In this document: piece by piece, positions 24,793 to 28,157 of the stretch
Layout of the letters: every line of letters starts with the position of its first letter
Numbering within the stretch: position 1 is the stretch's first letter
NCBI GenBank assembly: GCA_964431555.1
Contig: CAYSJW010000005.1
Location: forward strand, 15,215 to 79,214
Reading direction: 5' to 3'
From: an uncultured Gammaproteobacteria bacterium
Lineage (GTDB): Bacteria > Patescibacteriota > Microgenomatia > UBA8517
Length of the DNA: 64,000 nt
Notes under the pieces: generated by a model
The model's input: only the letters and a program-made list of their open reading frames with translations
What the model was told of the DNA's origin: nothing
The model's database searches: none
Made by a program: the position numbers and the translations under genes

Positions 24793-25079
24793 AATCTCAA
24801 AAAATCCCCTAGTCAAATTTATATTTTGACATCCAAAATATGACTGGAAGCGGTCCCCGTTTTATCACAGTCAAAACGGCGAACTTAAAAACTGGGTGCT
24901 ATCACCCCTCTTTCGCAAAAAAGCAAAAAGAGGGTTCCCGTGAGAACTCCTTAGAAAGGAGGTGATCCATCCGCTCCTTCCAGAACGGATACCTTGTTAC
25001 GACTTAATCCTCATCGCTGGTTTCACCTTCCCCTCCGACTCGGAGGGTTCGGGTGCCCCCAACTTTGCTGACTTGACGG

Positions 25080-25951
25080 ATTGCACTTCATCGAAGTTAT
25101 CGTGCGTTCCCACTAAGCGAGCGGCTTTCCCGCACTTAGCGAGCCGTAATGCTTATTCATCTCCAGCTTCAATTTCCTAATAAAAGAGAGTTCTTTTTCA
25201 GAGAGCTTACGCACATCCTGCCTTCCCTTAACTATCTCGGCTATTTGGCAAAAAGCATTAAAACTTTCCGCTTTATAGCCCAAGAGTTTATGTCGTTTGA
25301 AAAAGGGTATTATGACATTGTAAATATCATCCCTTTTTGTAAATTCAAAGACCCAAGCAGGAAGACGACCCACGCGCCTAGCACTCTTTTGATAAACAGT
25401 CCCTACGTTGAAAAATTGCTGGACCTTTAAAAGCAATGGTTTATTTCCTTCAGCTTGAGTAATGAAAAATCGTAAATCGATTCTGTTATCAGCTCGAATA
25501 GATACAAGGAAACATCCCTCACCTTCTGTCAATCCAACAACATATGAAGCTGGAAGCATTACGTATTTCCCTTCGATAATGCCAGTATACGAATGTTTTC
25601 AATATACTGTCAATTATCTACTATGGAAATGCTGACTTCCTAAAAGGCAATTACTTCGTTCCTTTTAGGATCTCCGTGGGTCATCATATATTCTATTCCC
25701 GGCATGAACAAATTGCTTTTACAAACTGGCTTCCTTCTGACCGCCCAGCAGAAGTCGCCAAGCATTTTCATTTTGTCCCTGCCGTTTGCCTCAGGCCCTC
25801 CGTTCTATCGGTTACCCGTAAAAGCAAAGTTTATACTTTGCAATAGAACTGCCAATTTTTTGGCTACATTTCAAGTTGGTAAAGGTTAACCATCAAGAAA
25901 TGGTAAGATTTTAACTTACTAGAATATATGACTGCCACGCGCGCATTTATT
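25080..25951 (-). mobile_element. Group I intron in the 16S rRNA 3' domain, inserted after GTACACACCGCC, carrying a LAGLIDADG ORF.
   Basis: 16S collinearity stops after ...GGGTCTTGTACACACCGCC (plus 25952) and resumes at CGTCAAGTCAGCAAAGTTGGGGG (plus ~25079). The ~870-nt insert contains ORF 25113..25559. Confidence 0.85.
25113..25559 (-). CDS. LAGLIDADG-family homing endonuclease (intron-encoded, in 16S).
   Basis: MLPASYVVGLTEGEGCFLVSIRADN carries the LAGLIDADG-type motif VVGLTEGEGCF. 148 aa. Confidence 0.9.
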   Translation of the reverse strand: MLPASYVVGLTEGEGCFLVSIRADNRIDLRFFITQAEGNKPLLLKVQQFFNVGTVYQKSARRVGRLPAWVFEFTKRDDIYNVIIPFFKRHKLLGYKAESFNAFCQIAEIVKGRQDVRKLSEKELSFIRKLKLEMNKHYGSLSAGKPLA

Positions 25952-27359
25952 GGCGGTGTGTACAAGACCCGAGAACGTATTCACCGCGACTTTGCTGATT
26001 CGCGATTACTACCAATTCCGCGTTCATGAGGGCGAGTTGCAGCCCTCAATCCCCACTGAGAAGCCGTTTGATGGGATTAGCTCCGCGTTACCGCTTGGCA
26101 ACCCATTGTCGGCTCCATTGTAGCATGCGTGTAGCCCTGGACATAAGGGCCATGCTGACTTAACGTCATCCCCGCCTTCCTCCAAGTTTAACTTGGCAGT
26201 CCCGTATGAACAATCTAACATACGGCAGGGGTTTCGTTCGTTACCCCACTGAAGGGAACACCCCACGGCACGAACTTACGATAGCCATGCAACACCTGTC
26301 CTACCATCCAACTTTCGAAGGATCTGCTACTATTTCTAGTAACATAAACGGTAGGATGTCAAGTCCAGGTAAGGTTCTTCGGTCCGTCTCGAATTAAACC
26401 ACATGCTCCACTGGTTGTGCGGGTCCCCGTCAATTCCTTTGAGTTTTAAACTTGCGTTCGTACTCCCCAGGCGGCTCGCTTAACGCGTTAGCTTGCGCCC
26501 CACGCCCAAAGGCGTAGGGCTAGCGAGCATAGTTTACGGCTAGGACTACAGGGGTCTCTAATCCCTTTCGCTCCCCTAGCTTTCGTTCCTCAGCGTCAAA
26601 CAGTTCATAGTTACCTGCCTTCGCCCTCGGTGTTCCTTGCGATATCAACGGATTTCACCCCTACACCGCAAGTTCCGGTAACCCCTAAATGTTTCGATTT
26701 CTTCAGTATTACCTCCCTTTCCGAGGTTAAGCCCCGGTCTTTGAAAGATAACTTAAAGAAACGCCTACGAACTCTTTACGCCCAATAAATCCGGACAACG
26801 CTTGCACCCTCTGTATTACCGCTGCTGCTGGCACAGAGTTAGCCGGTGCTTATTCTCCGTTCGGTCTCCCTCACGGCAAAAGTGGTTTACAACCCGAAGG
26901 CCTTCATCCCACACGCGGCGTCGCGGCGTCAGACTTTCGTCCATTGCGCACGATTCCCAGTTGCTGCCACCCGTAGGTGTATGGGCCGTGTCTCAGTCCC
27001 ATTCTGGGGGGTCACGCTCTCACGTCCCCTACCCGTCGTAGCCTTGGTAGGCCATTACCCTACCAACTAGCTGATAGGCCGCAGGCTCCTCCTTCGGCGG
27101 ACAGTTACATCCTTTGCTGCGTAGCAGCCAACCATCAACTAACAACAATCAACTCACAACTCTTATATTAGTTGTCTTTTAATTGTTGAAGCTCACAAGA
27201 TGAGCGTGTTGAAAGCTCGCTGCTGCGCAGCGTATGCGGTATTAGCCCCGCTTTCGCGGGGGTATTCCCCACCAAAGGGTAGATTCCTACGTGTTACTCA
27301 GCCGTTCGCGACTATCCGCAGGACAGAACATTCAACAATAAACAAGTAACTGGTTACAA

Positions 27360-27722
27360 CTAACTCTTCTTAAGATACTTCGAAAAACCTCCAAGTTGAT
27401 CAGCAATCTGCTTAGTTTCCTTTATCAACTCATTTTTTAAAGTAGAACTTATAAGTTTAGATTCAAATGCTATATCAATTCCAGCAGTAGTTTCATTTAT
27501 AGAACCTAATGAGTTGTTTAAATACATATTCAATTCTTTATCAGAGTCTTTGCCAGATCCTTCTGCGATATTAAGAACTACAGAGAGACTACTCCTTCTT
27601 ATCTGATCCGCTAATTCCCTATGTTCTCTCGGGAAAGTTTTACTTATCTCAACAACTGACAAATAAAATCTTTTTGCATCTTTATAAACTTTAAACCTCA
27701 TAAATCGAAATGTTTTATCCAT
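27360..27722 (-). CDS. Four-helix-bundle protein (TIGR02436, rRNA intervening-sequence protein) encoded inside an IVS in the 16S rRNA V1 region.
   Basis: MDKTFRFMRFKVYKDAKRFYLSVVEISKTFPREHRELADQIRRSSLSVVLNIAEGSGKDSDKE has the family-defining NIAEG motif. The ORF sits ~70 nt into the 16S, between inverted flanks GGTCCGCAGGAC / GTCCTGCGGA that form the IVS stem. Confidence 0.85.
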   Translation of the reverse strand: MDKTFRFMRFKVYKDAKRFYLSVVEISKTFPREHRELADQIRRSSLSVVLNIAEGSGKDSDKELNMYLNNSLGSINETTAGIDIAFESKLISSTLKNELIKETKQIADQLGGFSKYLKKS

Positions 27723-28157
27723 ATTCTTTGTTAATAATTAATAGTTACCAGTCGCAAGTTACAAGTTGATCTGTTCGGTCCTGCGGACCGTCCCACTTGC
27801 ATGCTTAAGGCACGCCGCTAGCGTTCGTCCTGGGCCAGGATCAAACCCTCAAATAAGTGACGAGTTTATACCCTAGTTGCGTATAAACAGCAACCAAAGT
27901 GTAGTTCGTCTATACGCCGGGTGTCAAATGACACCCGATCAGGTACCGAATGGCACCTGACTTCCAGTCATATTTTGAATGTCAAAGAGCAAAAATCAAA
28001 AAACCCACCAGATGGTGGGTTAATTTTAAGTTCCCGAATTAACGGAAAACCATCTGGCTCTTATTTCTTCATAAACTAAACTCAAATCAACTAAATGTAT
28101 TGAGCATATATAGTATATCAAAAAAATCAAACGAGTCAATTATAAATTTTTAGAATT

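Follow-up and report, generated by a model that had tools for sequence, protein, structure and literature searches.

A 16S rRNA gene with three insertions

We analyzed a 64-kb stretch of contig CAYSJW010000005.1 (hereafter, the window), which carries a 16S ribosomal RNA (rRNA) gene on its reverse strand. All coordinates are positions in this stretch, and L-numbers denote homologous loci. In its precursor form, the gene holds three insertions: an intervening sequence (IVS) with an open reading frame (ORF) for a four-helix-bundle protein, a hairpin of heptamer repeats, and an intron that encodes a LAGLIDADG endonuclease. We favor, with a probability of about 0.8, the reading that this is the 16S gene of an uncultured, ultrasmall bacterium of the Candidate Phyla Radiation (CPR), forming its own processing unit and interrupted by a group II intron at the base of helix 44, a cassette in helix 6, and a hairpin in helix 9.

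An earlier note, made from the sequence alone, had placed a 16S gene at 24958-27850. Both an Rfam match and a spliced alignment bear this out (Table 1). Once the three insertions are removed (27777..27325, 25952..25080, and, conceptually, the helix-9 insert), the sequence is colinear with Escherichia coli rrsH at 70% identity. The alignment is anchored at 27848 (E. coli position 9, or Ec 9), 27789 (Ec 68), 25953 (C1402), 25079 (C1403), and 24957 (Ec 1540). Reading the strand directly, the true 5′ end (GAGGGUUUGAUCCUGGCCCAG) lies near 27850 and the true 3′ end (GGAUCACCUCCUUU) near 24958. We used the spliced alignment because MAFFT misaligned the 3′ exon when the unspliced gene was compared with E. 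coli.

Mapping onto the small-subunit rRNA places two of the insertions at hairpin tips, those of helices 6 and 9, and the third at the 5′ base of helix 44. The sequence features that the note had listed are all present, each within 1-2 nt of where it had put them. The covariance-model search (cmscan) itself returned a span of 27399..25898, with model positions 1-90 and the 3′ end forced into unrelated sequence. The hit is squeezed in this way because the two large insertions cannot be bridged. Covariance-model annotation thus misplaces both ends of such genes; here, it misses ~450 nt at the 5′ side and ~940 nt at the 3′ side.

The closest matches of the exons are Woesebacteria 16S genes, at 85-89% identity, which assigns the host to the Microgenomates group of CPR bacteria. 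Insertions are present in 48% of CPR 16S genes, and a 16S gene with these two interruptions, at C1402 and in helix 6, belongs to kinds already catalogued for CPR rRNA genes. The gene is bracketed by a leader/trailer stem of 26 bp (25 Watson-Crick pairs and one G-U), in agreement with the processing stem that had been proposed from leader/trailer complementarity. The 26-bp core was taken directly from the sequence, since RNAduplex drew the pairing too far when given the complete leader and trailer.

Table 1. Coordinates of the 16S gene, its processing stem, and its insertions in the window.
Feature	Position	Strand	Basis
16S rRNA gene, precursor span with all insertions	24955..27856	(-)	Rfam SSU_rRNA_bacteria, 1152 bits; spliced alignment
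Leader arm of 16S processing stem	27961..27986	(-)	Pairs with 24850-24825
Trailer arm of 16S processing stem	24825..24850	(-)	Complement of 27961-27986
IVS replacing helix-6 apex (V1), 453 nt	27325..27777	(-)	Between Ec 89 and 90 in spliced alignment
5′ strand of helix-6/IVS stem, period-7 NAACNNN units	27739..27788	(-)	Cofold and heptad reading
3′ strand of helix-6/IVS stem, period-7 NGUUNNN units; holds ORF stop codon	27314..27362	(-)	Cofold and period-7 scan hit 27320-27368
ORF, 120-aa four-helix-bundle protein (PF05635 23S_rRNA_IVP / TIGR02436)	27360..27722	(-)	Pfam E 2e-25; TIGR02436 E 2e-25
ORF-less heptamer-repeat insertion, helix-9 tip (V2), 93 nt	27127..27219	(-)	cmscan insert; whole hairpin 27118-27229
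Predicted group II intron (IIC-like), 873 nt, between C1402 (25953) and C1403 (25079)	25080..25952	(-)	Homologue L032 and spliced alignment
5′-terminal linker CAAUAAAUGC, 10 nt, 5′ splice site to GUGYG equivalent	25943..25952	(-)	Homologue comparison
GCGCG, equivalent of group II 5′ GUGYG	25938..25942	(-)	Aligns with GUGCY in L033, L067, L070, L074
Intron domain I	25675..25939	(-)	Closing helices, columns 4-8/363-367 and 11-22/348-359; many compensatory changes, internal helices too
EBS1 loop GGGCGGU	25740..25746	(-)	Complementary to exon ACCGC|CC
Intron domain II, simple hairpin	25634..25674	(-)	Columns 368-381/442-455, compensatory changes
Intron domain III, J2/3 ahead (GAAGUCAGC... CAUAGUA block)	25565..25630	(-)	RNAalifold pairing
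Sigma-70-like promoter match TTGACA-18-TATACT, domain III loop	25584..25613	(-)	11/12 consensus positions; predicted only
Single-domain LAGLIDADG_1 ORF, 148 aa, in intron domain IV	25113..25559	(-)	PF00961 E 6e-17, residues 8-106
Intron domain V, 35-nt hairpin, 14 bp	25109..25143	(-)	Pairing in 22 sequences
Intron domain VI, bulged A25088/A25087 (8th-9th nt from 3′ splice site), then AAU	25083..25105	(-)	Outer helix covaries at 3/4 pairs

Helix-6 and helix-9 insertions

The largest change in the 5′ part of the gene is the replacement of the helix-6 apex. Insertion-free relatives have ~30-50 nt in the same stretch. The flanks of the insertion, GGUCCGCAGGAC (27789-27778) and GUCCUGCGGAU (27324-27314), pair with each other, and the pairing extends into a ~40-bp stem with small internal loops (27788-27739 with 27362-27314; -59 kcal/mol by cofolding). 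Both arms are written in heptads. The 5′ arm reads GAACAGA UCAACUU GUAACUU GCGACUG GUAACUA UUAAUUA UUAACAA, and the 3′ arm AGUUAGU UGUAACC AGUUACU UGUUUAU UGUUGAA UGUUCUG.

An ORF-bearing IVS in V1 with complementary flanks is what the earlier note had described, and the stem, the position at the helix-6 apex, and the PF05635 match of the ORF all uphold it. The ORF, called NIAEG-family in that note, also lies inside the 16S gene. Thus, hairpin-tip replacement, long complementary flanks, and a PF05635 ORF, the marks of this class of IVS, occur here together. The AlphaFold model of the protein has four helices at a predicted local distance difference test score of 95.6. Its nearest folds in the Protein Data Bank (PDB) are 2GSC (TM-score 0.9) and 2RLD. 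Next comes Avd, which diversity-generating retroelements (DGRs) use as an accessory protein.

A metagenome scan with an alignment of relatives gave 80 loci with the closest relatives of the protein (L082-L161). At 27 of these, same-strand 16S positions 1 to ~60 lie upstream of the ORF, and 16S sequence from position 64 or later lies downstream. Three further loci have 16S on the downstream side only, and Rfam identifies L106 as the same case. None of the 80 loci has 23S flanks. Two other loci (L050 and L051) were left unused; their motif-based helix-6 spans were false, the ORFs being a toxin-antitoxin pair and non-rRNA sequence. A published survey likewise counts 18 CPR four-helix-bundle ORFs in 16S insertions versus 4 in 23S insertions (Tsurumaki et al. 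2024, PMC11270868, Table S4). With ~30 of 80 relatives at the helix-6 site, the 16S location is thus common in CPR, and the earlier view that a four-helix-bundle ORF in a 16S gene is notable does not hold.

The helix-6 copies share both the RNA and the protein side of this arrangement. Long complementary arms were found in all 15 copies examined (z from -4.7 to -10), and the ORF was intact in every one. Nonsynonymous differences are fewer than synonymous ones (pN 0.33 versus pS 0.76), with dN/dS of 0.09-0.33 where dS is unsaturated. The protein is therefore maintained by purifying selection.

The V2 region carries a second, smaller insertion, and here too the heptamer-built expansion of the earlier note was recovered. 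The helix-9 element folds as a 112-nt hairpin (-50.6 kcal/mol, z = -5.4 versus shuffles). Its period-7 repeats are detected both by Tandem Repeats Finder (TRF; period 7/14, 27129-27161) and by a period-7 AAC scan (27123-27171, with 0.05 regions expected per shuffle).

We propose that a double-strand-specific ribonuclease (RNase) of the RNase III type would cut the helix-6 arm duplex and remove the cassette without religation. The resulting 5′ fragment of ~70-90 nt would stay bound to the 16S body through the base of helix 6, and removal would free a stem-capped mRNA for the four-helix-bundle ORF. We infer this excision from the arm duplex, from the behavior of 23S IVSs, and from the reported removal of CPR rRNA insertions from transcripts (Brown et al., as cited in PMC11270868). 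The helix-9 hairpin might either be kept as an expansion or be trimmed in the same way.

Alternatively, mature 30S subunits could retain the helix-6 cassette, the helix-9 hairpin, or both as expansion segments, and translation of the ORF would then take place on the precursor or not at all. Both insertions sit at solvent-exposed hairpin tips (the helix-6 spur and helix 9) where extra RNA is tolerated, and the helix-9 hairpin is only 93 nt long and has no ORF. Nevertheless, double-strand RNases typically act on duplexes such as this one, which is perfect to near-perfect over ~40 bp; transcripts of CPR rRNA genes are reported to lack the insertions; and RNase III excises 23S IVSs with the same ORF family, as described for those elements in PMC4990558. 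We therefore regard retention as unlikely, although it is the alternative that survives best.

Helix 6 attracts insertions in further CPR 16S genes as well, and this hot spot holds different cargo there: we observed GIY-YIG-like ORFs (L002, 372-1698; L005, 1448-1783) and, in L018, a heptamer hairpin without an ORF.

The intron between C1402 and C1403

A scan of a genome collection with an alignment of the endonuclease yielded 80 loci, of which ~28 carry a homologous intron. These ~28 insertions sit between UGUACACACCGC and CCGUCA of CPR 16S genes, and all homologous introns end CAAU before CCGUCA. The junction is ambiguous by one nucleotide because the base after CACCGC is C in every copy except one. 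L032 reads CACCGC|AAAUUU...CAAU|CCGUCA, which puts C1402 at the end of the 5′ exon and AAU at the end of the intron. The earlier note had given the intron as 25080..25951. Its 25080 end stands, whereas the 25951 end does not, since CACCGCC joined to CCGUCA would put four Cs in the ligated exon; 25952..25080 fits CACCGC|CCGUCA. The note was right that a LAGLIDADG-encoding intron lies beside the decoding centre, as the C1402/C1403 site and the PF00961 match confirm.

We find that the intron RNA can be laid out in the six domains of a group II intron. RNAalifold, applied to the 5′ part of 26 homologues, predicts 84 pairs in domains I-III, 67 of which show compensatory changes. Domain I has several internal arms, one with a GUAA cap. 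One of its loops, GGGCGGU, is complementary to the exon ACCGC|CC as exon-binding site 1 (EBS1). It is the loop of a covarying hairpin and is invariant in 26 of 26 homologues. The exon is itself invariant, so covariation between EBS1 and the intron-binding site (IBS1) is impossible. The 3′ strand of domain III (GAAGGGAAA) lies directly ahead of the ORF.

The 3′ part of the intron gives equally clear signals. Domain V has an invariant CUCGC/GUGGG base with the CGC triad (25141-25139, central G.U) and five covarying pairs above it. A 2-nt bulge in the 3′ strand, 5 bp above the triad, is followed by a 4-bp upper helix. Across 22 sequences, all cells of domain V are paired (100%), and 7 of its 14 pairs have changed on both sides. 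An invariant GGGAAC overlaps its 3′ base. Domain VI has a single bulged A, 8 nt from the splice site, in introns of the type of L019, L020, L024, L025, L032, and L033. Taken together, the 18 pairs of domains V and VI are standard in 396 of 396 cells, and 10 have changed on both sides. When the partners are slid by 1-3 columns as a control, pairing falls to 35-42%. L004, L070, and L074 were excluded from this count, their extra hairpins having broken the alignment register.

On this comparative sequence evidence, the intron is a group II intron and not a group I intron, because domains I-VI covary, domain V carries the CGC triad and the 2-nt bulge, domain VI has a bulged A in most family members, the 3′ end is AU, and the EBS1 loop is complementary to the exon. 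The triad, the ~460-nt ribozyme left when the ORF is set aside, and the similarity of the J2/3-domain III block to that of the Oceanobacillus iheyensis intron point to class IIC. The intron RNA would self-splice and ligate its exons; the decoding centre has to be continuous, and ligation is therefore needed.

Several observations weigh against the overall interpretation. First, splicing, excision, and fragmentation of the 16S transcript are all three inferred from sequence. Second, the equivalent of GUGYG begins 10 nt past the 5′ splice site, while the AU at the 3′ end fits the AY rule. In the 28 homologues, a linker of 9-33 nt and variable sequence is likewise followed by conserved GYGCN-UGGCAG. 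The displaced GUGYG is a known variant and not the canonical form; other rRNA-hosted group II introns that carry LAGLIDADG genes are also spliced upstream of this motif (PMC4424553, PMC13190283). Third, the window intron falls below the threshold of the Rfam model group-II-D1D4-1 (19.3 bits, E 0.6, 25658-25568; gathering score 35), and Rfam Intron_gpII, which covers domains V-VI, has no match on it. Introns at the same site in L030, L031, and L074 score 36-41 bits with group-II-D1D4-1 at the GAAGUCAGC block. Fourth, the domain V loop is RAAAN (5 nt) and not GNRA, and domain VI in the clade of the window intron has two bulged As beside a mismatch instead of a clean single bulge. The assignment to IIC is also not a formal classification, and no convincing ribosome-binding site precedes the four-helix-bundle ORF. 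Finally, the introns of L004 (3960-3995), L070, and L074 have one or two extra hairpins straight after domain V and before the invariant GGGAAC, which is unusual for such a conserved region.

The low Rfam score of the window intron and the displaced 5′ motif could also fit an insertion that is cut out by endonucleases without ligation, leaving the 16S rRNA split into pieces of 1.4 kb and 140 nt; fragmented rRNAs do occur in some organelles and bacteria. We consider this very improbable. The intron ends form no long duplex, and a break between C1402 and C1403 would sever the P-site/decoding strand. Furthermore, the catalytic core, the invariant triad, the EBS1 loop, and domain VI are kept in at least 26 lineages, a conservation that would have no purpose absent ribozyme splicing.

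It is even less probable that we are dealing with a pseudogene or a chimeric assembly, with another, uninterrupted copy in use. The contig is of metagenome type, and with one window in view a second 16S copy could exist. Against this, every conserved block of the exons is intact and colinear with its E. coli counterpart, including the anti-Shine-Dalgarno end; both ORFs are intact; 4 contigs of public assemblies encode the identical endonuclease; and one 16S copy is usual in CPR genomes (PMC11270868).

An archaeal-type bulge-helix-bulge intron was considered and dropped, as a group II core with covariation is present.

The weakest alternative is a group I intron encoding its own LAGLIDADG endonuclease, the class that the earlier note had assigned. 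LAGLIDADG genes are classically found in group I introns. The majority of intron-like CPR rRNA insertions are also group I-like (134 in 16S and 433 in 23S genes; PMC11270868). Nevertheless, this class is already contradicted and scarcely credible here. The last base of the 5′ exon is C (...CACCGC, with no U closer than 10 nt to the junction), which precludes the U.G pair of P1 at the 5′ splice site, and the intron closes with U (...GCAAU in all 28 homologues) where a group I intron would have its omega-G. Rfam Intron_gpI (RF00028), a model of the P3-P9 core, has no match at E ≤ 1 over 24700-28150 nor at E ≤ 10 over 25060-25970, and covariation favors the six-domain group II fold instead.

The LAGLIDADG endonuclease

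The intron ORF shows the single helix ending in a conserved acidic residue that characterizes single-domain LAGLIDADG proteins. This motif is VVGLTEGEG, with G13-E14-G15 invariant. More than 120 clusters are 65-92% identical to the protein. Its closest solved structures belong to the I-OnuI family, and each half of the two-domain members matches it. The last 10 codons and the stop lie inside domain V (25143-25113). The conserved C-terminus KHYGS..AGKPLA thus reflects RNA constraints, because the end of the ORF overlaps domain V. The promoter match in the domain III loop stands 25 nt upstream of the start codon, and its TTGAC is kept in most homologous introns.

I-ShaI, a single-domain CPR relative, dimerizes and cleaves its own site, which is in the 23S gene. 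By analogy, the endonuclease should be homodimeric. Such a homodimer would cut intron-less 16S alleles, with the uninterrupted 16S site (TTGTACACACCGCCCGTCAAGTC / TTGTACACACCGCCCGTCAAGTCAGC) as its target, and DNA repair would then spread the intron.

Relation to known systems

Both the insertion-site type at C1402 and the helix-6 four-helix-bundle ORF are already known in CPR. Group II-like CPR insertions have been found only at 16S position 1400 (site 16IS9), where 39 of 53 encode LAGLIDADG proteins and none a reverse transcriptase (PMC11270868). According to that paper (Tsurumaki et al. 2024, J Bacteriol), they were first noted by Brown et al. 2015. The C1402/C1403 intron is a member of this set: it shares the CPR host, the single-domain LAGLIDADG_1 protein, the lack of a reverse transcriptase, homologues that are group II-like by Rfam, and a site (1400 versus 1402/1403) that agrees within alignment ambiguity. 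The 16IS9 insertions were classed by Rfam hits only, a cut-off that the window intron itself would miss. Here, we worked out the junction, 5′ linker, EBS1 loop, CGC triad, and domain map of a 16IS9-type intron.

The rns-1396 intron of Thiotrichaceae (Thiomargarita), described by Salman et al. 2012 and by Liu et al. 2026 (PMC13190283), is also similar. It is a bacterial 16S group II intron with IIC-type features, a single-motif LAGLIDADG ORF in domain IV, a 5′ linker in all members, and no reported EBS2 (PMC13190283). It differs in being inserted at GUACA|CACCGC after A1396, six nucleotides upstream of the C1402 site, and in having an EBS1 of the UGUGUACA type versus GGGCGGU. Membership in the rns-1396 family was therefore rejected, and the two introns are relatives in kind only. 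A 2026 survey of 753 LAGLIDADG-encoding group II introns has no member at 1402 (PMC13190283). The C1402/C1403 family is thus a second bacterial lineage with a 5′ linker in which the branch-point A is mostly kept, and it could be useful for learning what determines the 5′ splice site in introns with a displaced GUGYG.

Group IIB1 introns of fungal and algal mitochondrial rRNA genes (Toor & Zimmerly 2002; Li et al. 2011; as reviewed in PMC4424553) share the rRNA host, a LAGLIDADG gene in place of a reverse transcriptase, an altered IBS1-EBS1 pairing, and splicing 1-33 nt upstream of GUGYG. Those introns are organellar, belong to class IIB1, and often lack the branch-point A, whereas the C1402 family has the CGC triad and, in most members, a bulged A.

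The helix-6 element resembles the S23p IVSs of 23S genes (Leptospira; Coxiella helix 45) in its PF05635 ORF, its position at a hairpin tip, and its complementary flanks, and, by analogy, RNase III excision without religation would be expected, as those IVSs are presented in PMC4990558. It differs in lying in 16S and not in 23S helix 25 or 45, in having arms made of 7-nt repeat arrays, and in encoding a protein under purifying selection, whereas the account of Coxiella in PMC4990558 indicates that its protein is apparently not made.

The fold of the four-helix-bundle protein also recalls Avd (PDB 4DWL, 8UB7; TM-score ~0.8), with a weak match to NF033474 (E 3.5e-4). Avd is placed with a reverse transcriptase in solved ribonucleoprotein entries. 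In contrast, identity to Avd is ~10%, and neither insertion encodes a reverse transcriptase. We saw no template or variable repeats beside the four-helix-bundle ORF and no reverse transcriptase ORF in the 16S region. Membership in the Avd/DGR system was rejected, as NF033474 scores 20.8 bits against a cut-off of 80.

Heptamer repeats and a possible cassette

The heptad build is common to the helix-9 hairpin and all helix-6 homologues. Across the 80 four-helix-bundle loci, identity at lag 7 rises to 0.51-0.60 only within 100 nt before and after the ORF, against a background of 0.36; lags 6 and 8 give no signal. This flank signal is alike in the 30 rRNA-embedded and ~47 free-standing relatives, and the polarity of the arms is consistent, with CA-type (NAACNNN)n units upstream and GT-type (NNNGTTN)n units downstream. 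Strongly complementary flanks occur in 12 of 46 free-standing copies. The pairing of heptamer arms around the four-helix-bundle ORF, inside or outside rRNA, suggests a discrete cassette.

Tentatively, and with more doubt than conviction, we propose from these sequence patterns that the helix-6 insertion is a copy of an undescribed, promoter-less cassette in which a TIGR02436 ORF lies between complementary 5′ (NAACNNN)n and 3′ (NNNGUUN)n arrays. Such a cassette would insert between genes and also into stable-RNA genes with high transcription, in their hairpin tips and spacers (16S helix 6, tRNA clusters). It would be cut from the host transcript at its own arm duplex, which would spare the host RNA and give the ORF an mRNA protected by a stem, and it could leave behind ORF-less heptamer hairpins, such as the helix-9 expansion and a hairpin at helix 6 of L018. 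The four-helix-bundle protein might bind the repeat arms.

Intergenic direct repeats of heptamers are known: TAACTGA-type repeats occur in Beggiatoaceae, Cyanobacteria, and Bacteroidetes, with unknown function, as MacGregor 2015 (PMC4679880) describes them. The repeats of the window are similar in their tandem 7-nt units, their TAAC/CAAC core, and their mostly intergenic location, going by that description. They differ in forming complementary pairs that enclose a gene or fold into rRNA hairpins. The passages of PMC4679880 on these repeats do not mention a link to four-helix-bundle genes, and we found no literature link between the two. If true, the association of the gene with paired heptamer arms could explain both the long-unexplained IVS proteins and the intergenic heptamer repeats.

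The ORF-less element of L018 (58-188) is a (GAACNNN)4-loop-(NNNGUUC)4 hairpin at helix 6. Two free-standing cassettes lie in or beside same-strand tRNA clusters (L123:1961-2978 and L130:2501-3057), a location that suggests co-transcription with stable RNAs.

The window itself holds a second, truncated ORF of the family (90 aa, 20447..20719(+), TIGR02436 E 3.6e-21) in a cassette at 20341-20885. Its arms pair at -69 kcal/mol (z = -5.5), with GT-type units upstream and CA-type units downstream, the reverse of the usual polarity. An IS1595-family transposase (19403..20134(-)) adjoins it.

Nine strong lag-7 arrays were detected in the window, eight of them intergenic, and none at lags 5, 6, 8, or 9. 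Tandem 7-nt arrays of the GTTAGTT, GGGTAGT, and ACTCACT types occupy many intergenic regions; they lie at 20337-20415, 23749-23896, 42100-42253, 59590-59752, and 60201-60242, and TRF lists further 7-nt repeats at 14430, 14517, 16070-16133, 22096, 33090, and 41879. Some arrays form inverted pairs, for example 59626-59667 with 59697-59745.

Neighboring features of the 16S gene

Rfam places the 23S gene at 14310..11235 and the 5S gene at 10130..10013, ~10.6 kb downstream of the 16S gene with protein genes and tRNAs between them, so the rRNA genes are unlinked. The 23S match is only ~150 nt above model length, and the 23S gene is thus without a large insertion. The best promoter match upstream of the 16S gene is TTGACT-16-TATACT with an upstream TG. 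Between it and the leader arm of the processing stem, there is a terminator-like hairpin with a U-run; these features lie at 28002-28021 (-) and 28112-28139 (-). A second promoter-like site, at 27927-27898, lies in the leader downstream of that arm.

The 16S sequence is shorter than that of E. coli by ~30 nt at Ec 452-482 and by ~14 nt near Ec 1128-1141. The 515F primer site has A in place of C (CAGCAGCAGCGGUAAUAC, 26811-26830 (-)), and the 806R primer site has G in place of U (GGAUUAGAGACCC, 26551-26564 (-)). The organism is probably missed by standard amplicon primers.

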